The translations under genes and the position numbers were made by a program. Of a stretch of DNA of 40,865 bases, positions 3,509-40,454 are shown in pieces. This DNA is from a phage, in the sequence record PQ785851.1; one strand, written 5' to 3'. The notes beneath the pieces are model-generated. The model saw nothing but the letters and a program-made list of their open reading frames with translations, was not told the DNA's origin and searched no databases. Within the stretch, counting starts at the first letter, position 1, and each line of letters opens with the position of its first letter.

Positions 3509-3645
3509 TAGTGTGTATATCGTGTATACCGATTCTAGCGGAGGGTGCATTGGTATATGCGCCTCACAACACTGTATAAAATCACATGATATAAAAATTA
3601 TAACCGGAACACTCCAGAACAGTAGTTACATGGTATACACAGTAA

Positions 3646-3702
3646 TATATATAATAATAATAATAAGAGTAAAAGGTTGATATATATAGATATTTTAATG
3701 TA
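3646..3702. repeat. AT-rich element with (TAA)5 tract, copy A
   Basis: 26-bp block GTAAAAGGTTGATATATATAGATATT (3669-3694) is identical at 28908-28933; preceded by ATAATAATAATAATAA. Confidence 0.6.
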
Positions 3703-3816
3703 ACTATGGCGTAACTTGGCGTAACTGAGCGTATACGATTTCCCGCTGGTGCATATGGTATACATCGAGTTACATCGGTTACGCGTATACCATGATTCGT
3801 GGGTTAATTGGCGATA

Positions 3817-18610: not shown

Positions 18611-19005
18611 CCACGCCCACCGGACGTAACCAATCCAAAGCCACCACCTTTCTTACGCAGAAGGTTCCAGTACAGACGACCCCACGGGGTGGAAGTCAGT
18701 GCTGATTGTGATTGAGACGTTGATTCATAGCTGATAGAGAACTCACCACTCAGGGAGTAACTTGCCACCTTCTTACCGTAATCATCCAAAGACTCATTCT
18801 GCTTAAGTGCACCATCAAGAAAGGCAATGTGCATAGTGTACAGTGCAAGTGCCTTGTAAGCATCATCACCAAACTTACTGGCGCAGATGTATAGCTTTGC
18901 CAGTTCAAGCCATACGTCCAGAGTTTCATCCGGCACGTTACGCAAAGCAGGAACTAACGATCTCATAAAGACTAGTGCTTGTTCGTTCATAAAACCCCCA
19001 TACAA
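18598..19005 (-). CDS. head-tail connector protein (by position)
   Basis: 135 aa, first of the connector block downstream of the capsid gene. Confidence 0.35.
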   Translation of the reverse strand: MYGGFMNEQALVFMRSLVPALRNVPDETLDVWLELAKLYICASKFGDDAYKALALYTMHIAFLDGALKQNESLDDYGKKVASYSLSGEFSISYESTSQSQSALTSTPWGRLYWNLLRKKGGGFGLVTSGGRGCGC

Positions 19006-23390: not shown

Positions 23391-24974
23391 TTATTTAATT
23401 CCTGCTAATCGCATCATTCTCGCTTTAGGGTCTTCTGCGATGTTCAGTACCAGGTTGACAGCCATCGTCAAACAGTCTATCTGGTCATCGTGCGAGTGAG
23501 AATCATCTGCCGTAAATGCTGCAATCTCTGTTAGCAATCCGTTAAGCCAATTTGCTGACTCAGGCAGGATAACGTTGCCAGCCTTAATCTGAGGAAGTGC
23601 ACTCATTACGCGAGTCAGCTTGTCGTTATCTGGCACGTATGGCTCGATAGGCGTTCGCATAACCCTTCCTGCTGATTGAATCAGACCTATACCAGATGCT
23701 TTCTTCTCGATGATGATTTTACGAAGGATACCATCTGTCTGATTGGATGCCCTTGCCATCCTCTCGAAGTCTAATAGCTCTGCCTCTAGCTCTGGCGCCT
23801 CCCATTTACCACGTCGCTGGTCTAACAGGTAAATCTTGCCATCCTTATAGCCCCAGAGTTGCAGTACACTAAAGTCACTGTAGCTTTTAGTGGTCATCGC
23901 GGTATCAAGCGTCATGAACCTGTAATCGTACTTAGCTGGCGGTCGCAGGGTGTCACTAATGCGCTGGAGCCAGTCTACGTTAATCAGGTTGCCACCTAGA
24001 GCTACAGGCTCCTGAGCATATTGACTAAGGAATGTGTAAGGATCAGCATCACGCATGGCTATCAAGTCTTCTATTGATTCCTTTGCTGGGAAGTAGCTGT
24101 AATACTTAACCCCATCGCGCTCTACAAATGGCGAAGAAAGAACGTCATCTATAAACTGCTGCCTAATCCATTCAGGAAGCGTGTCGGCGTATTCTTCCGT
24201 GACTATTGCTGGAATTTTAACTACGTCGAATTTTATCCCCATCTGCCCTGACTCCATGAAGTGACTAGTGTCAAGAACATGAAGCCTTTGCTGAACGGCT
24301 AATATTGGAGTCTCTTTTCCCTTAACTGAACTCGCCCTTCGTGAGCGAATTGTGTTCTTGAGAAGCATATTAACAGCCTCCCTCCTTACATTACTAAGCG
24401 CATCATCTGGCTTCAGCGGGTCATCAAGCATTATGCATCCACTGTAATCATCGGTCATGTAACCACCACGCGAACCAGTCACCTGTCCAGCCATTGCCTT
24501 AGATATCGATTCAAACCTCACCTTTCCATCTTCATCTAGAACCTGAATCTCATCATCCCTGCAAGTCCCAAATGAGCAAGGCCAAAGTTCCTGAAACTCC
24601 TTTGACTTAATCAGGTCGCGCACACGCTTTGAGTTACGCTTAACCAATGAGTCAGAGAACGACAAACTAAGATTTCTAACCTTCTTAATCTTGATCATGC
24701 TATATACAGGGAAATGTATACTAAAGAGCTCGGTTTTTGCTGATCCAGGAGCTACGTTTATGATGGTATCCTTTCTCTTACCATCAAGAATCTCATCTAT
24801 GACACGACAAAGGTATTTAGTATGCCAATTCATTTTGAATCTCTCGCCTTGCGTTATCTGAAAGAAGCACCGCAAGAACCCTTCGAAACTATGCTCAGAG
24901 ATTGCCTTTATAGCCATCTTTTCAGCGTGAGTTAGTTCATCCCAAACAATTAAATCACTCATTCTACTCTCCAA
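23391..24974 (-). CDS. terminase large subunit
   Basis: 527 aa; Walker-B-like IMLDDPLKPDDALS; position after the small terminase gene. Confidence 0.8.
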   Translation of the reverse strand: MESRMSDLIVWDELTHAEKMAIKAISEHSFEGFLRCFFQITQGERFKMNWHTKYLCRVIDEILDGKRKDTIINVAPGSAKTELFSIHFPVYSMIKIKKVRNLSLSFSDSLVKRNSKRVRDLIKSKEFQELWPCSFGTCRDDEIQVLDEDGKVRFESISKAMAGQVTGSRGGYMTDDYSGCIMLDDPLKPDDALSNVRREAVNMLLKNTIRSRRASSVKGKETPILAVQQRLHVLDTSHFMESGQMGIKFDVVKIPAIVTEEYADTLPEWIRQQFIDDVLSSPFVERDGVKYYSYFPAKESIEDLIAMRDADPYTFLSQYAQEPVALGGNLINVDWLQRISDTLRPPAKYDYRFMTLDTAMTTKSYSDFSVLQLWGYKDGKIYLLDQRRGKWEAPELEAELLDFERMARASNQTDGILRKIIIEKKASGIGLIQSAGRVMRTPIEPYVPDNDKLTRVMSALPQIKAGNVILPESANWLNGLLTEIAAFTADDSHSHDDQIDCLTMAVNLVLNIAEDPKARMMRLAGIK

Positions 24975-24978
24975 ACTA

Positions 24979-25503
24979 TTACAGCTTACTAATCACAGAC
25001 TCCAGCGCTTCCTTCATCGTACCAACGTCGTTAGCTGAAGAGTTATTGCTTATAGTAATCTCCTGCGGCTTATCGATGCCAAGTTCTTTGGAAATCATGC
25101 CAGGGTTAACAATGCCAGACGCTGCCAGCTGATACTTCTGCTCGCGAATCACGGAATCAATGAATGCAATTACCTCGTCATAACCAGCCGACTTCCTCCA
25201 TTTCTCTATTGCGCTATGGGTAACACCGCAGTAAAGGCAGAATCCTGTTAGTGTGAAGACTCGTGGCTTGTGCACCAGATTCTCGGTTACGACACCCTGG
25301 AAGCTGGCTGTCTCAATTGCCTTGATTGCCTGGCTCTCAGCCCATGAGAAGTATTTCACGGCCAGGTCGAATAGCTGCTCTGGGGTCATTATTCGGTTTT
25401 TGGACAGAGTTGTAATGTCAGAATACTTTTTGTTGTACATGGCTTTGAAGTTGCCAGAGCGAATCTTTTCTTGCGCCTGGCTGGTGAAGTTTTCGTCTTT
25501 CAT
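24979..25503 (-). CDS. terminase small subunit
   Basis: 174 aa immediately upstream of the large terminase gene. Confidence 0.55.
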   Translation of the reverse strand: MKDENFTSQAQEKIRSGNFKAMYNKKYSDITTLSKNRIMTPEQLFDLAVKYFSWAESQAIKAIETASFQGVVTENLVHKPRVFTLTGFCLYCGVTHSAIEKWRKSAGYDEVIAFIDSVIREQKYQLAASGIVNPGMISKELGIDKPQEITISNNSSANDVGTMKEALESVISKL

Positions 25504-27481: not shown

Positions 27482-27528
27482 ATTATGCCTGATTTCTCAG
27501 GCGATTGTTTAGCAATTCGTGCTATTGT
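27482..27528 (-). promoter_or_regulatory. promoter-like module, conserved 22-bp element family (copy d)
   Basis: Minus strand reads AATAGCAC-GAAT-TGCTAAACAA, 17 bp, CATAAT, 6 nt (taccac), ATCGACAACACGA. Confidence 0.5.
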
Positions 27529-28070
27529 CCATTCATGAGTAACTTAGCTTTCCTATAAAACTCCATCGCCACCTCAACCTCTTCCTCACTGTACCGCAAG
27601 TGGTATGGTAGTCTACTAGTGTGCTCACCTTCATTCAACTGGTTGCTCCACTCTTCAACTTCTATCGCATGCATGCCAACGATGTATGGATGAACGTAAA
27701 TCTTATCTCCGATTAAGCAGATGACTCCAGCTTCCTGTAGTGATGGCAGGATGTTATTTTTTAGGTCATGCATGAATCCCCCGTTGAGCCCGACAAATGG
27801 CTTGACCTTTCTCAACGCTTCATATGTTGATCTAATTCCGACAACCCCTTTACCATTCATGCTTTGGGCGTGAATCTTTCGCACAACCACTCCAGACTTT
27901 CTGTTGAGATTCACGCTGAGCAACTCATCTACAGCGCACCAGTACTTTTGTGAGTGTCGGTATCCATTAGCATTGATTGCAACTCGCAGTGGTAAAAGTC
28001 CGTCCTGCGTTGCAGTCTTCATAATTTGCTCATCAGTCAGCTTATCTTCGTTAAAATCAAACATACCCAT
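27522..28070 (-). CDS. short, internally deleted paralog of the 527-aa protein at 30694..32277
   Basis: N-terminus M(G)MFDFNEDKL..LPLRVAINANGYR.SQ and segment NGKGVVGIRSTYEALRKVKPF...CLIGDKIY match both ends of the 527-aa protein. Confidence 0.6.
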   Translation of the reverse strand: MGMFDFNEDKLTDEQIMKTATQDGLLPLRVAINANGYRHSQKYWCAVDELLSVNLNRKSGVVVRKIHAQSMNGKGVVGIRSTYEALRKVKPFVGLNGGFMHDLKNNILPSLQEAGVICLIGDKIYVHPYIVGMHAIEVEEWSNQLNEGEHTSRLPYHLRYSEEEVEVAMEFYRKAKLLMNGQ

Positions 28071-28591: not shown

Positions 28592-28624
28592 TTCATACTC
28601 CTGATTGGTTGCCTCTCGTTAAGA

Positions 28625-28659
28625 TGAATACATAGTACCACACATCTACACGTTATCAA
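28625..28659 (-). promoter_or_regulatory. sigma70-like leftward promoter
   Basis: Minus strand reads TTGATA, 16 bp, TACTAT, 6 nt, ATCTTAACGAGAG. Confidence 0.35.
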
Positions 28660-28710
28660 GTGTTATTAGTTAAAACATTCTGGTTTGTTACGGATTATTG
28701 GTGTTAGCAC

Positions 28711-28730
28711 CAGCTATAGCTCAATGTAAA
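28711..28730. repeat. 20-bp element CAGCTATAGCTCAATGTAAA, copy B
   Basis: Identical to 3489-3508. Confidence 0.6.
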
Positions 28731-28878
28731 GTCTGCGTACAGTTTGTAGATAAGGATTATTGCCGAATCCACCCATATATGCCTTTTTATTCCTACAATG
28801 TAGTCATATTCCTACAAGCGTAGGAATATATCATAGAAAATCACCAAATATCACATATCAGCTATCTACATTATCTAC

Positions 28879-28942
28879 ATATATATAATAATAATAATAA
28901 TAATAAAGTAAAAGGTTGATATATATAGATATTATTATGTAA
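28879..28942. repeat. AT-rich element with (TAA)7 tract, copy B
   Basis: GTAAAAGGTTGATATATATAGATATT at 28908-28933 identical to copy A; TAA tract two units longer. Confidence 0.6.
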
Positions 28943-29215
28943 CCATTGCGTAATTTCGCGTTATAGGCGTACAGCATTCCTACGGAGGGTGGGTGCATCT
29001 ACACAACATAACTTCTGTAACGTGTACATCCAAAATGGCTCAGCCAGAATCAAAATCAACTTGTATGGTAGTCCTTCCTCTATTCATTCACTCCCACACA
29101 AATAATTGCTAAATTCGCAACAATCAAAAACATCATTGCATCAGATACAATATTGCTATATGTGCAATAATGAGGTGAATCATTGCAATATCTGCAAGAA
29201 TCAATAAATCCAACG

Positions 29216-29268
29216 AATAGCACTTTTTGCTAATGACATTCATTGGCGACTGGACCATAATGAATCCA
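29216..29268 (+). promoter_or_regulatory. promoter-like module, conserved 22-bp element family (copy l)
   Basis: AATAGCAC-TTTT-TGCTAATGAC, 18 bp, CATAAT, 6 nt (gaatcc), ATCAACAACGAGGAGAGAG, ATG. Confidence 0.45.
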
Positions 29269-29288
29269 TCAACAACGAGGAGAGAGAT

Positions 29289-30693: not shown

Positions 30694-32277
30694 ATGTTTG
30701 ATTTCAACGAAGATAAACTATCTGTTGAACAAGTTATGGCGATTGCCGCGACCGAAAACCTTCCACCGCTTCGCGTGGCCATTAATGCAAATGGCTATCG
30801 GCAGTCTCAATCATTCTGGAAAACACCTGTGGAGATTGACGCAGGTAATGACAAGTACCCTGTAATATCTCTAGGCAATGACATTGATGTTGTTGGTAAG
30901 CTATCGGCAAATATTTCTCGCTCAGTTCAGTTCCCAGAGTCATCAGCATACATGCACTTTTTGGGTTGTGTGTCCGCTGCGATGCTAGGGCGCTTTACTG
31001 TTGAGTATCACGGAACCCAGCAGCCAACATCGCTTTACGTGGTAACTAGCCAGCCGCCATCTACTGGTAAGTCAGCCATTAACTCTCTGTCAATTTCGCC
31101 AATGATTGCTGAGACTGAGCGTTTGAACGAGGTGCGTAAACGTGACCGCAAAAAGATTATGGCTAAGCTGTCTGCGCTAGCAAAAGAAATGAAACAGGAG
31201 AAGTCACCATCTGAGATGGCTTCACTGTTTGAGGAGAAGGAAGATTTAGAGGAAAAGCTCGAGAAGCTGTGCGATATCGTATTCCCGGTCTCAGATACTA
31301 CGCCAGAAGGTCTTGCACGAATCAACAACCGCCAGGGTAACTTTGCGGTCATCTCGGATGAGGCAACAAGCGTCAACTCATTATTGGGCATGACATACGG
31401 TGATGGTTCCAAGAAAACGAACAGCGAGCTTGTACTTAAAGCGTGGGATGCTGGTAACGTATCTATTGCCCGCGCTAACGCAGAAAACAACATGAGTTTC
31501 GTGGCAATGGGGTGCATCTCTGTAATTGCTCAGGATGAAACAATCAATGCGATTATGAATGCTGGTGCGCGTGGTATTGGTGTTTCCGAGCGTTTCCTTC
31601 TGGTGCGTGAAAAGTCATTTCTTGGAGACCGCGTGTTTGTTGATGAGAATGGCGATTCAACATACGAGGCTATTGATGGTGGTCTTAAGGCAGACTATTT
31701 CCGTCTCGTTCATGAAATTATGAATGAAGTTGAAGTGAAACTGACAGTAAGTGCGTCATCCATGCGCTACCTTAACCGAGCTCGCCAGGAAATGGAACCG
31801 CATCTTGGTGATGGCGGTAAATATTCCCACACGATGTTACGTGGTGCTCTTGGTAAATTTGATAAGCAAGCAATCCGTATTGCCTCAGTATTGCACGTTA
31901 TTCGCAACTGGTTCGCACCGGCAGGGTCGAGTCCGCAGAAATCAAGAGAGATTGAGCTTGAAACAATGCAAGAAGCGGTTATGATTTTCCACGAGTTAAG
32001 CAAGACTTATTTGTCGTCCGCTAGTGCTGCTGGTCATGCTGGTGATAATGCTGAAATGAATAAGCTGGTTGATATCCTGATTAAGCAAGGTAAGAATGGG
32101 AAGGGTGTTGTTGGCGTTCGCTCACTGTATGAAGCAGCACGCAAAGTTAAACCTTTTGAAGGACAGGCTGGCGTAATGACTCGTATTAAGGACCATTTGA
32201 TTCCGATGCTTGATGAGAAAAACTATACATGCCTGATTGGTGATAAGATTTACATTAATCCGCGATTGTTGGGGTGA
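30694..32277 (+). CDS. large early protein with P-loop-like motif (possible replication-associated protein)
   Basis: 527 aa; Walker-A-like ...VVTSQPPSTGKSAINS...; N- and C-terminal domains are shared with the 182-aa ORF 27522..28070. Confidence 0.45.
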   Translation: MFDFNEDKLSVEQVMAIAATENLPPLRVAINANGYRQSQSFWKTPVEIDAGNDKYPVISLGNDIDVVGKLSANISRSVQFPESSAYMHFLGCVSAAMLGRFTVEYHGTQQPTSLYVVTSQPPSTGKSAINSLSISPMIAETERLNEVRKRDRKKIMAKLSALAKEMKQEKSPSEMASLFEEKEDLEEKLEKLCDIVFPVSDTTPEGLARINNRQGNFAVISDEATSVNSLLGMTYGDGSKKTNSELVLKAWDAGNVSIARANAENNMSFVAMGCISVIAQDETINAIMNAGARGIGVSERFLLVREKSFLGDRVFVDENGDSTYEAIDGGLKADYFRLVHEIMNEVEVKLTVSASSMRYLNRARQEMEPHLGDGGKYSHTMLRGALGKFDKQAIRIASVLHVIRNWFAPAGSSPQKSREIELETMQEAVMIFHELSKTYLSSASAAGHAGDNAEMNKLVDILIKQGKNGKGVVGVRSLYEAARKVKPFEGQAGVMTRIKDHLIPMLDEKNYTCLIGDKIYINPRLLG

Positions 32278-36851: not shown

Positions 36852-38842
36852 AACAATTCTCCAAAATTCTTAAAAGCGATTATATCTTTACCTTTGCCGT
36901 TTTTTCTATGTGTAACCTGCACTGGTGCGCGGAACTTATCTACGTTCGCCATAATCATTCTCGCATTGCGAAGTCTGCCAATTCTTGTGGCTTCAGCGCG
37001 ATTCTCTATATGAGCAAGGCAGAAGTTCTTCCATAGCACGCTGCAAACTCGATGGTCAGACTCGGGGTTGAAGAATTCCCATGCATTAAACCGATCTCCG
37101 TTATGAGCCATGATATTGTACTTAACAACAATTCCGGTTTGATTCTTACTTAAGCCAACTTGAAAATCATAAACACGAAGGTAATCACCACGACGATACA
37201 TCTTACCTGTAAGGTTAGCATTGGGGTCTTTAAGCATCTCTCCGCACTCTCGACAGACCTTCGCTGCTATATCATTGCGAGTCCCGCACCCTTTTTTGAT
37301 AATAGCCTTTGTCTGCAGGTCTGTAATATCTTCACAAACTGTAAAAGTAAAGAAGTGCTCACATCTCTTTCCGTCAATCTTATTTCCGCATCTACGAGCA
37401 AAAGGCGAATTCTCGTATGAGCAAATTGGGCACACTCGAACCTCTGAATCACCATTGCGTGATGACTTAAACTTCTCGGCCTGAATCTCTTCAATTATTG
37501 GATCAAAGTAAAGTTCAGCCATATCATCAAGTGCGCCAGCAAAGTCCAGGACTAAGTGGTCATCCTTTTTCATACCAATTTCAATATGTTTCTTCTTGAG
37601 AATTCGCATTCCACGACCAAGAAGCTGAATCATTAATGTCAGGCTTCCAATCTTGCGGAGTATGACACTTGTGTCCCACGGAGGCACCGAAACGCCTGTG
37701 GTTAAGCATCCAATCTGAAAAATAATCTTGTACTTTCCGGTCTGGCATTCATCTAGAATTTCCCTTCTCTTCTTCTCACCAGTGGAATCAGTGATTATCG
37801 CGTAAGGATAACCATCTGGTAGAGCAGCAGCCGCTTCATCGCAGTGCATTTTACCAGCGCAAGTTACCAGTGCGGCGTTACGTGTTTCAAGTATTTTGAT
37901 AACGAACCCCATTATATTTTGTGTCATCGTCTGGTTTTCGTGAATCTTTGCAGCCATTGCATCCATTTCTTTTTTGCTGAAATCCTTAACGCCATCACTT
38001 CCATCAGGTGCAAACTCGCTAAGGTCATAACCCAAATCACCAACCTCACCGTAAACAGTTGGAACAACGAATCCCAAATCAACCAGGTAACTGGTCGGAA
38101 CTTGCATTACCGTCTTGCGCCAGAAGCCACGAATATTTGGGTTACTAACTACAATGTGGTCGTTGTTACGATACGGGCTACCAGTCAAGCCGAATATACG
38201 GAGCTCGCGACCATACTTCTCTTTGCAGCGGCGCTTCATTTCAGTGATGATTAGTGTGTACTGCGCACGACCAGTTCCAAGCAATCCGGTATTCACTCCA
38301 TCCTTGAAAACCATTTCGCCTTTCTTGGTGCTCATTTGCTCAAATGTCTCTTCGTTCTCTTCAGCTTCTACGATATCCATGTGGTCCACCATGTGTGCCT
38401 CATCTATTGCGATAACTGCCGGAACATAGTCACCAAGCCCCTTGAACAAGCCGTTTGCCGCCGTTCCTTCACTTGCCACTATAGTTGGGTAGTAAACAGA
38501 TTTAACGTTAAGGCCAGCGCAATATACGCTATTACGGATACCGAAGTTACGGAGTTCTTCAGCATTCTGGCTGATGATTTCTGACTGGCGAGAAAGCACC
38601 ATGTAAGGAAGGCCAAGCTGCTCCATGCGTTTACCAATCATGGCAAGAATGATTGTCTTACCTGCCGATACCGACAGGTCTGCGATGAACGGAGCTTCGT
38701 ACTTAGCAATATTCTTGCCGATTTGGTCGAATGTCACGCACTGGAATGGATACGGCGTAATATCTCCAAACTGATAGTCTCTCTGAATCTGCTTAATCTT
38801 TTCTTGGTCAAAGTTTGCCACTAAGCGTTCTACTGGAAGCAT
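36848..38842 (-). CDS. SF2 (DEAD/DEAH-like) helicase with C-terminal Cys-rich region
   Basis: 664 aa; Walker A ...SAGKT..., Walker B VIAIDEAHMV; C-terminal clusters CPICS...C...C and C..C. Confidence 0.75.
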   Translation of the reverse strand: MLPVERLVANFDQEKIKQIQRDYQFGDITPYPFQCVTFDQIGKNIAKYEAPFIADLSVSAGKTIILAMIGKRMEQLGLPYMVLSRQSEIISQNAEELRNFGIRNSVYCAGLNVKSVYYPTIVASEGTAANGLFKGLGDYVPAVIAIDEAHMVDHMDIVEAEENEETFEQMSTKKGEMVFKDGVNTGLLGTGRAQYTLIITEMKRRCKEKYGRELRIFGLTGSPYRNNDHIVVSNPNIRGFWRKTVMQVPTSYLVDLGFVVPTVYGEVGDLGYDLSEFAPDGSDGVKDFSKKEMDAMAAKIHENQTMTQNIMGFVIKILETRNAALVTCAGKMHCDEAAAALPDGYPYAIITDSTGEKKRREILDECQTGKYKIIFQIGCLTTGVSVPPWDTSVILRKIGSLTLMIQLLGRGMRILKKKHIEIGMKKDDHLVLDFAGALDDMAELYFDPIIEEIQAEKFKSSRNGDSEVRVCPICSYENSPFARRCGNKIDGKRCEHFFTFTVCEDITDLQTKAIIKKGCGTRNDIAAKVCRECGEMLKDPNANLTGKMYRRGDYLRVYDFQVGLSKNQTGIVVKYNIMAHNGDRFNAWEFFNPESDHRVCSVLWKNFCLAHIENRAEATRIGRLRNARMIMANVDKFRAPVQVTHRKNGKGKDIIAFKNFGELL

Positions 38843-38938: not shown

Positions 38939-39421
38939 ATGAATGCAGTTGATAAGCGAACCATTAACGGCAATAACGGAACTGTCCGCACTGAAGACAA
39001 AAAACAACGAAAACGACCATCGGGTTACTACGTTTTAAAAGATGAAGTAAGAGCCGGGCTACGCGCGCGACTGGAGATTGTTCTTGATTTCTACGGTACA
39101 AAGGCGAACATCGCAAAGCAGTTAAATGTGTCCAACCAAGCTGTATCGGAATGGTTTAACCGCGGTATGATTTCGGCTCGAGGGGCTCAGCGAGCACATA
39201 ATGCGTACAAGCGAAATAAGGAGGGATTTCGAGCTACATTCTGCCGACCAGACCTGCAATTCGACGGAAACGGAAAACCGCTAACACTTCGATGCAAGAA
39301 GCGCCATATGCTTCGCGTAGTTACCGATGCAGAACTAGCAACAAAGCCACCCTGTCGACCATGGCGAAAGAATAAGATTGCCAACGAAGCCGCACGAAAA
39401 GCTAAAGAAAGATCTGAATGA
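38939..39421 (+). CDS. Cro/CI-type HTH DNA-binding protein with basic C-terminal extension
   Basis: 160 aa; HTH-like ...GTKANIAKQLNVSNQAVSEWFNRGMIS...; RBS GAGGTGA. Confidence 0.5.
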   Translation: MNAVDKRTINGNNGTVRTEDKKQRKRPSGYYVLKDEVRAGLRARLEIVLDFYGTKANIAKQLNVSNQAVSEWFNRGMISARGAQRAHNAYKRNKEGFRATFCRPDLQFDGNGKPLTLRCKKRHMLRVVTDAELATKPPCRPWRKNKIANEAARKAKERSE

Positions 39422-40430: not shown

Positions 40431-40454
40431 TTTTAGCAAATTGTGCTATTTTAC
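40431..40454. promoter_or_regulatory. inverted copy (i) of the conserved 22-bp element, upstream of the tail-fibre gene
   Basis: Plus strand reads TTTAGCAAATTGTGCTATTTT; a TG-n-TATTTT extended -10 lies 19 nt before the ATG at 40471. Confidence 0.35.

Follow-up and report, generated by a model that had tools for sequence, protein, structure and literature searches.

In phage SPP1, the pac region (pacL-pacC-pacR) carries short repeat boxes that flank the region of the first packaging cut, are bound by an oligomer of the small terminase subunit TerS (G1P), and are located at the terS gene. The cosB region of phage lambda, which lies beside the cut, holds three sites for a terminase subunit (R1-R3, two of which are inverted) together with a site for IHF, a host bending protein that assists. 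Lambdoid operators overlap the -35 and -10 elements of promoters and adjoin the repressor genes. T1-like phages, in which the locus described here is found, are notorious laboratory and fermenter contaminants, generalised transducers, and common candidates for therapy.

As cited in PMC11447400, P22 has its pac site within gene 3, where it consists of one asymmetric sequence of 22 bp. For T1-like phages, it is already known that pac resides in the intergenic region considered here: for SU57, the genome end was set at an abrupt change in read frequency, and pac, which that paper did not identify, was said to be in this untranslated region, as in T1 (PMC7718038). The signal itself has been proposed to consist of ATATA repeats or of a P22-like AGATTT (PMC11447400, PMC8421802). 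A 21-nt direct repeat of T1-like phages has also been described, with its function given as unknown (PMC11447400). We found no earlier description of the motif ATTGC-N7-GCAA(T/C) in the literature searched.

Palindromic sites in a divergent intergenic region

The window, by which we mean the whole 40,865-bp stretch of DNA analyzed, covers the greater part of a T1-like coliphage genome (Drexlerviridae, Braunvirinae, Christensenvirus-like). A close relative is Escherichia phage CY1_Cui-2023 (95% identity over 86% of a 20.9-kb query, window 20000-40865), and TR1, TR3, and IME542 are also close. The sites of interest are found between divergent genes, in a 697-bp intergenic region (28592-29288). 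This region is bordered on the left by a leftward operon that encodes a DUF7174 protein, a helicase-derived 182-aa protein, small ORFs, a tRNA, TerS, and the large terminase TerL. To the right is a rightward early operon comprising small ORFs and then a DUF3987 helicase (30694-32277).

The initial annotation had described a cluster of ATTGC(A/T) half-sites in this region. All five of the strings that it quoted are present, at 29104-29198, and their enrichment is borne out. ATTGC or GCAAT occurs six times in 116 bp, compared with 0.46 expected from the window-wide density, and this stretch has the highest density of these words anywhere in the window. A count of six was reached by 4 of 2000 local and by 1 of 200 whole-window dinucleotide shuffles. 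The motifs are therefore real and enriched, but they had been parsed incorrectly as half-sites, in that they pair into full 17-bp palindromes. Four such dyad-symmetric sites, ATTGC-N7-GCAA(T/C), are found within 29105-29198. The sites and the first linker, to which no strand is assigned, are as follows.

29105-29121: site 1, ATTGCTAAATTCGCAAC, a 5-7-5 palindrome with right arm GCAAC
29122-29134: linker between sites 1 and 2, AATCAAAAACATC, conserved, with GCAAC-AATCA kept after the first site in T1 and relatives
29135-29151: site 2, ATTGCATCAGATACAAT, with right arm ACAAT (one mismatch; GCAAT in relatives)
29152-29168: site 3, ATTGCTATATGTGCAAT, with perfect arms, the sole exact ATTGC-N7-GCAAT in the window
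29182-29198: site 4, ATTGCAATATCTGCAAG, an ATTGC-N7-GCAA palindrome

The starts of the sites (29105, 29135, 29152, and 29182) are spaced by 30, 17, and 30 bp, such that the array consists of two tandem 47-bp units, each with the form site-N13-site and with its paired sites 30 bp apart. A repeat finder reported the same array as a 36-nt family with spacings of 47 and 30 bp. Site 3 abuts site 2, and the resulting GCAAT/ATTGC junction forms a third dyad. Palindromes of the form ATTGC-N7-GCAA(T/C/G) begin at 29105, 29152, and 29182, and the fourth, at 29135, has the one-mismatch right arm. These three occurrences of ATTGC-N7-GCAA are the only ones in the window, compared with a shuffle mean of 0.4; all fall within the 94 bp of the array, and the probability that three sites fall so close together by chance is ~5e-6. 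When one mismatch to ATTGC-N7-GCAAT is allowed, the window holds 11 matches, four of which are in the array.

A hairpin or RNA element was considered for this location and rejected, because folding of the DNA from 29095 to 29210 was not better than that of shuffled sequences (z=-1.2) and the only Rfam match was subthreshold. The latter, to the ES003 sRNA at 29165-29214 (minus strand), scored 23.4 bits against a gathering threshold of 37 (E=0.04) and is regarded as a chance match. Some GenBank records place short ORFs or misleading names on the noncoding array or its neighbors (TR1 'ORF13', Phleasolo_63, and 'DNA helicase' in ES), and the 41-47 aa ORFs at 29080-29258 (minus strand) of the window are most likely spurious.

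Other repeats occupy the same intergenic region. Its left half (28740-28990) resembles an origin, with an (AAT)8/AT-rich tract (28880-28935) that is flanked by short repeats and lies ~170-220 bp from the array. The repeats by this tract include four copies of ATTCCTAC (28788, 28807, 28820 in reverse, and 28976) and several of ATCTACA. In other lineages, the corresponding position is occupied by other repeats (Rtp TTCCGCGGAA; T1 GTGTTAATC, three copies; TLS GTTCACG, two copies), and these vary independently of the ATTGC array. A third repeat class, with two copies of TATTCC followed by one to four of GGAATA(AT), is located directly upstream of the early-promoter repeat in T1-like phages (in T1, L168, near 48700-48790) and in several Tempevirinae-like phages (L201, L206, L212, and L230). 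The ATTCCTAC/GTAGGAAT repeats at 28788-28829 of the window may be related to this class.

Conservation and distribution of the array

The segment 29024-29293 was found at ~80-93% identity in >130 Drexlerviridae records. From these phages, we aligned 18 distinct sequences of Braunvirinae, Rogunavirinae, and Nouzillyvirus and compared the parts of the array with the spacer of the adjacent promoter, with the following results.

Arms: 32 of 40 columns invariant, mean column identity 0.98
7-bp spacers: 7 of 28 columns invariant, mean column identity 0.82
Linkers: 12 of 26 columns invariant, mean column identity 0.90
Promoter spacer: 0 of 17 columns invariant, mean column identity 0.54

The difference in invariance between arms and spacers is significant (Fisher p=1.3e-5). 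Because the arms are conserved and the spacers are free to vary, the pattern is the signature of binding by a dimeric protein. Site 2 illustrates this trend, since its spacer differs across phages (ATCAGAT, ATCTGAA, ATTCCAT, and ATTAAAT) and its arms are kept. The right arm of site 1 and the following AATCAAAAACATC are invariant in nearly all of the 18 relatives, and the left arm of the same site is the most degenerate of the eight arms. The earlier suggestion of cooperative binding is consistent with these data, in that predicted protein-binding sites form a multisite array in which arms are kept and spacers drift.

Homology to many phages ends at 29237-29239 on the right of the array and at ~28775-28867 on the left, with the array retained. 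Because the array is kept when both flanks are swapped, it behaves as an independent module. The right-hand boundary is sharply mosaic: homology to IME542, CJ19, P818, BEK2, Rtp, AKS96, AHP42, and others stops within 3 bp, directly after the 21-nt repeat, and this repeat may be a recombination junction between early-gene cassettes.

Some lineages carry a shorter form. T1 and its relatives have a single two-site unit, (A/G)TTGC-N7-GCAAC-AATCA...-GTTGC-N7-GCAA(C/T), and a similar two-site unit with 31-bp spacing is present in an uncultured lineage (L199, L205, and L208). No site of the ATTGC-N7-GCAA type was found anywhere in the genome of TLS; at the equivalent place, TLS has AGACCAATCGGTCT palindromes, two in tandem, that occur nowhere else in this genome. 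These palindromes (49792-49819 in TLS, L169; tandem TAGACCAATCGGTCTA) replace the array 9 bp upstream of the TLS early-promoter repeat, are also present in L207 and L198, and fit the sequence TAGACCnnnnGGTCTA, which we take to be the NemR box of E. coli.

The cluster of sites is unique in each of the four genomes searched for it, as would be expected of a single-copy pac: in TR3, phiEB49, and T1, as in the window, sites cluster only in the array region, with one or two stray matches per genome in those three. A fifth site of phiEB49 (L170), ATTGCGCTTCTTGCAAG at 176-192, is located 300 bp to the left of its four-site array and is still intergenic. No satellite, plasmid, or chromosome with the array was found among E. 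coli complete genomes and plasmids. A double-site pattern gave 17 matches in reference genomes, all in unrelated bacteria and none in Enterobacteriaceae. A loose two-site pattern matched viral contigs mostly by chance, and two T1-like contigs were informative among the matches listed.

Packaging starts of relatives and the neighboring early promoter

Published termini of relatives can be placed on the window by alignment. TR1 uses headful packaging with a PhageTerm site at 3,615 (PMC10450929), which corresponds to window position 29076, 29 bp to the left of site 1. The GenBank note of TR1 assigns the 'initial packaging site of the headful packaging mechanism' to 3595-3744, equivalent to window 29056-29205, and thereby covers all four sites. 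For MSK, PhageTerm gave a start at 36,862 in the forward direction (p=1.6e-9; PMC8421802); this position equals window 29068, 38 bp left of site 1, and the direction is leftward in the orientation of the window. The genome end of SU57 maps to about 29051, ~54 bp left of site 1. These positions define the following feature, again without a strand.

29050-29082: conserved block AATCAAAATCAAC-TTGTATGGTAGTCC..., the putative first-cut zone, based on PhageTerm positions of relatives transferred by alignment

The PhageTerm peaks of relatives fall in this block beside the array and not within the array. Given that the 697-bp region is already known to hold pac, the chance of lying no more than ~55 bp from the array is roughly 0.3. 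The block is missing in Rogunavirinae and in CJ19 (Nouzillyvirus) and present in ESCO41 (Nouzillyvirus), and the array is kept in all of them. A published PhageTerm start for TR2, at 18,637 on the plus strand (PMC12628846), is discordant with the TR2 array at 3533-3728 (GenBank numbering, OP251154), reflecting either a different numbering or a real discrepancy.

The start points of several sequence records also coincide with the array. The T1 record has a 2.8-kb terminal repeat annotated from position 1, which is the first base of the site GTTGCATGGTGTGCAAC, and its second site is at position 31. The ESCO41 record opens within site 4, 1 nt from the right edge, the Rtp record opens inside site 3, and those of Rogue1 and IMM-001 open at or near the junction of sites 2 and 3. 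As evidence on packaging, these record starts are suggestive only.

As the best-supported reading, although at somewhat less than an even chance, we propose that the array constitutes the recognition or assembly part of the headful pac site of this T1-like phage. Because the array adjoins the packaging starts of relatives, a part in pac is more likely than a promoter operator. We infer that the array, and not only the adjacent block, is the recognized element, and we also infer, from terminus data that all come from relatives, that the window phage would be cut at the corresponding position. Dimers of a DNA-binding protein would occupy the palindromes; this protein would be either terminase, acting via TerS, or else a recruiter of terminase, whether an accessory protein or a factor of the host. 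The first terminase cut would then be made a few tens of base pairs to the left of the array, at ~29050-29080. From there, packaging would run to the left, crossing the AT-rich region and the operon whose last genes are terS and terL. To the right of the array, the marbox-like early promoter (29216-29261) would form a module of its own, with the following parts.

29216-29237, plus strand: 22-bp element, a copy of the T1-like 21-nt direct repeat aaATAGCACnnnTTGnTAAAA, marbox-like, a neighbor and not a member of the array
29233-29261, plus strand: best sigma-70-like promoter of the rightward early operon (ATGACA-17-CATAAT, 10/12 matches)

In relatives, the -10 element of this promoter stays (T/C)AT(A/T/G)(A/G/T)T, and its spacer is 54% conserved. 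Transcription is predicted to start near 29268, which places the centers of the sites at about -78, -108, -125, and -155 and the array as a whole at about -70 to -163. The core promoter is free of sites, since the nearest one ends at 29198 and the -35-like and -10 hexamers begin at 29233 and 29256, respectively. The promoter scan detected no leftward promoter within the array.

The 21-nt repeat occurs nine times in the window: at 29217, 3818, and 30027 on the plus strand and at 1970, 16696, 27525, 36435, 38926, and 40449 on the minus strand. All copies are oriented with transcription, and most lie ~20 bp upstream of a -10-like hexamer, with the copy at 40449 lacking a clear one. The marbox of E. 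coli regulators has been defined as gcannwwntgnnaaa, with a class II window of -36 to -55 (PMC12052159). This definition is matched exactly in eight repeat copies, compared with 0.46 expected, and with one mismatch in the copy at 29217, whose center near -42 is within the class II window. T1-like promoters may thus depend on, or mimic, activation by Rob/MarA/SoxS, as judged from these sequence matches; our literature search found no paper linking the marbox with phage T1. A sigma-54 reading of the 22-bp element was rejected by hand, because the GG-to-GC spacing is 2 bp too short.

The initial annotation held that the motifs match one arm of the 22-bp element and suggested that the factor recognizing this element might also bind the array. 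Neither point is supported by comparison of the two. Only TTGC(T/A)A is shared, the conserved columns of the array are ATTGC and GCAAT, position 6 varies independently of the element, and the element is an asymmetric marbox-like repeat. By eye, sites 1 to 3 have two or three mismatches to the marbox and site 4 has one; no -10 follows the sites, which do not fit the repeat pattern (ATAGCAC-N3-TTGNTAA or gcannwwntgnnaaa with a -10 downstream). No ATTGC-N7-GCAA site adjoins any of the other eight repeat copies in the window. The array and the 22-bp element are different kinds of motif, the one palindromic and unique and the other asymmetric and present in nine copies.

Two further features accompany the repeat-type promoters. 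Downstream of the -10, most of them have a conserved leader, CATCGAAACGA / CATCAACAACGAGG (at 29262-29288 for the promoter beside the array), which may be a shared 5'-UTR signal. T1 (L168) and relatives carry, just upstream of the two palindromic sites, a hairpin, ACCAGGCGAACCTGGT, and an additional copy of the 21-nt repeat that has no convincing -10. These are ~220-257 bp inside the record start of T1 (581-633 of the reverse-complemented end junction), and the two sites may be transcribed in the T1 lineage.

Candidate readers of the array and comparison with known systems

The proteins of the window that could act on or near the array include the following.

23391-24974, minus strand: large terminase TerL, a 527-aa ORF adjoining TerS, with homologs annotated as large terminase subunit in relatives, predicted to carry out the cleavage
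24979-25503, minus strand: small terminase TerS, P22 gp3 family (PF16677 E=4e-12, phrog_606, PDB 3P9A E=4e-14), candidate reader of the array
38939-39421, plus strand: 160-aa protein with a Cro-like helix-turn-helix (PF14549 P22_Cro E=1.6e-5, below Pfam's cutoff), alternative candidate reader

The similarity of the 160-aa protein to P22 Cro (1RZS) has E=0.044, with the aligned segment VLDFYGTKANIAKQLNVSNQAVSEW. The helicase-derived 182-aa ORF (27522-28070, minus strand) combines ~50 residues from the N-terminus with ~70 from the C-terminus of the DUF3987 helicase, lacks the ATPase core, and matches phrog_7327 plus residues 446-514 of phrog_2373; from this composition, it may be a DNA-binding or decoy protein.

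Co-variation of the array with these proteins was assessed in IMG/VR loci anchored on the helicase and on TerS and joined by contig. In TerS, a helix-turn-helix-like segment has four very different versions (THSAIEKW, NINRFASW, TASSIQSW, and GHNAISKW) in phages with identical arms, and it is nearly the same in L199, which has the array (SKCALEKW), and L211, which lacks it (SRCAMEKW). The segment does not track the presence or absence of the array, a weak comparison given that the DNA-reading surface of gp3-family TerS proteins is not established. Sites with dyad symmetry are better suited to dimers than to an oligomeric ring of TerS. TerS, the Cro-like regulator, and the helicase were each rejected as the protein that the array tracks, because its presence follows none of them.

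The array could instead be an operator or upstream regulatory array for a dimeric helix-turn-helix regulator of the phage, for example the Cro-like 160-aa protein, that controls the rightward early promoter, the leftward one, or both. Dimers of the Cro/CI type classically bind dyad-symmetric sites of 14-18 bp set next to one another, a format shared by the four 17-bp palindromes (5-7-5, arms conserved), and 17 bp separate the array from the promoter repeat. The Cro-like protein is 86-90% identical among phages with four sites, and residue 3 of its recognition helix is Q in every phage with the array and K in TLS, which has none. However, Cro/CI-type operators overlap the core promoter, whereas the sites here are off the -35 and -10 elements, and their distance from the promoter repeat differs among T1, the two-site lineage L199, and the window phage. 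Moreover, no copy of the array is present at the other eight repeat-type promoters, no autoregulatory ATTGC site was found at the promoter of the Cro-like gene, and the recognition helix does not co-vary with the sites: it differs within the four-site class (SNQAVSEW, TPQAVEEW, and TRQAVEEW) and is almost identical in L199, with the array (THQTIQQW), and L211 and L213, without it (THQVIQQW). The earlier proposal of an operator for the rightward early operon is weakened by these distances and by the packaging starts of relatives only 29-54 bp away, and we consider an operator function rather unlikely. A reading by a host (E. coli) DNA-binding protein, accessory to packaging or to early transcription, has other strengths. 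The arms are ~98% invariant across phages whose TerS proteins are 63-69% identical and whose regulator helices differ; that the arms are kept while such DNA-binding proteins diverge makes a host factor conceivable, and IHF at lambda cosB or at the P1 pac site would be comparable. A TTGC/GCAA half-site persists in T1-like and L199-like lineages, none of the ORFs within 10 kb of the helicase strictly co-occurs with the array, and both a degenerate-marbox reader (Rob/MarA/SoxS; site 4 is one mismatch from the definition) and a CytR-like reader, whose half-site TTGCA/TGCAA presumably resembles the arms, could be envisaged. Nonetheless, no E. coli factor with the consensus ATTGC-N7-GCAAT could be named, and the invariant outer ATT/AAT and variable position 6 of the sites do not fit the marbox. 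Marbox matches with up to two mismatches are also common by chance, numbering 17,730 in E. coli (PMC12052159), and overall we find a host reader improbable.

A role in a replication origin, with the sites read by the DUF3987 helicase or its truncated 182-aa paralog as initiator, has in its favor that multiple sites share the intergenic region with the (AAT)8 AT-rich tract and other short repeats and that this helicase is the most conserved nearby protein (88-97% identity in four-site phages). This role is nevertheless very improbable, since the TLS helicase (71% identity) is closer to that of the window than is the T1 helicase (57%), yet it is T1 that has two sites and TLS that has none. The group with ~70% helicase identity is likewise split, with the array present in L199, L205, and L208 and absent in L201, L206, L232, and TLS. 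An iteron organization, in which repeats co-vary with their initiator and adjoin an AT-rich element, was not found for the array, and the lineage-specific repeats that flank the AT-rich tract and change independently of the array are better iteron candidates. That the motifs are a functionless chance clustering in AT-rich DNA might be argued from the commonness of TTGC and GCAA words (182 of TTGC[AT] and 150 of [AT]GCAA in the window) and from the seven one-mismatch sites elsewhere in the window, but the shuffle statistics, the 30/17/30 register, and the arm-specific conservation across four subfamilies effectively refute this explanation, whose probability we regard as negligible.

Returning to the array as a part of pac, a more specific form can be envisaged. 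In a large part of the Drexlerviridae, the packaging signal might be read by a separate dimeric host or phage factor, and not by TerS, on a symmetric 94-bp platform of four palindromes. Because the complex would be located just upstream of the marbox-type early promoter, its occupancy could link the onset of packaging to the shutting down of early transcription. A separate dimeric reader would explain why the arms are invariant despite the divergence of TerS and of the phage regulator. We offer this scheme as a speculation that is quite unlikely to hold.

Published placements of pac in T1-like phages are only rough within the intergenic region, and the conserved motif ATTGC-N7-GCAA(T/C), in four copies (two in T1), provides a precise and testable handle. 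It should be useful for mapping and engineering packaging specificity and for predicting transduction, as well as for the consistent reopening of genome records and the removal of spurious ORF calls over the noncoding array.

Among known elements, the T1-like 21-nt repeat adjoins the array and shares with it the trivial word TTGC(T)A; unlike the array, it is asymmetric, has nine copies, lies ~20 bp before a -10 element, and matches the marbox. The lambdoid OR/OL operators of Cro and CI resemble the array in having dyad-symmetric sites of ~17 bp in adjacent multiples, and a Cro-like helix-turn-helix protein is encoded by the phage. In contrast to these operators, the array is upstream of the promoter and the Cro-like gene is 10 kb away; the array also adjoins the packaging start mapped in relatives. 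Lambda cosB is similar in that multiple binding sites lie beside a cut site, as those of the array would. However, lambda terminase makes precise nicks in a cos system, the R sites are asymmetric, and gpNu1 has a winged helix-turn-helix, whereas the window phage belongs to a headful lineage and each of its sites is a palindrome. P22 and Sf6 share with the window phage a TerS of the same family (PF16677; PDB 3P9A E=4e-14) and a headful packaging series, but the window has nothing similar to the P22 pac sequence, and its array lies between genes, far from terS. As in SPP1 pac, one set of boxes would lie on the side that stays outside the first headful, given a cut at ~29051-29076 and leftward packaging. 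Compared with SPP1, the sites of the array are 17-bp palindromes and lie 3.6 kb from terS (8.4 kb in T1).
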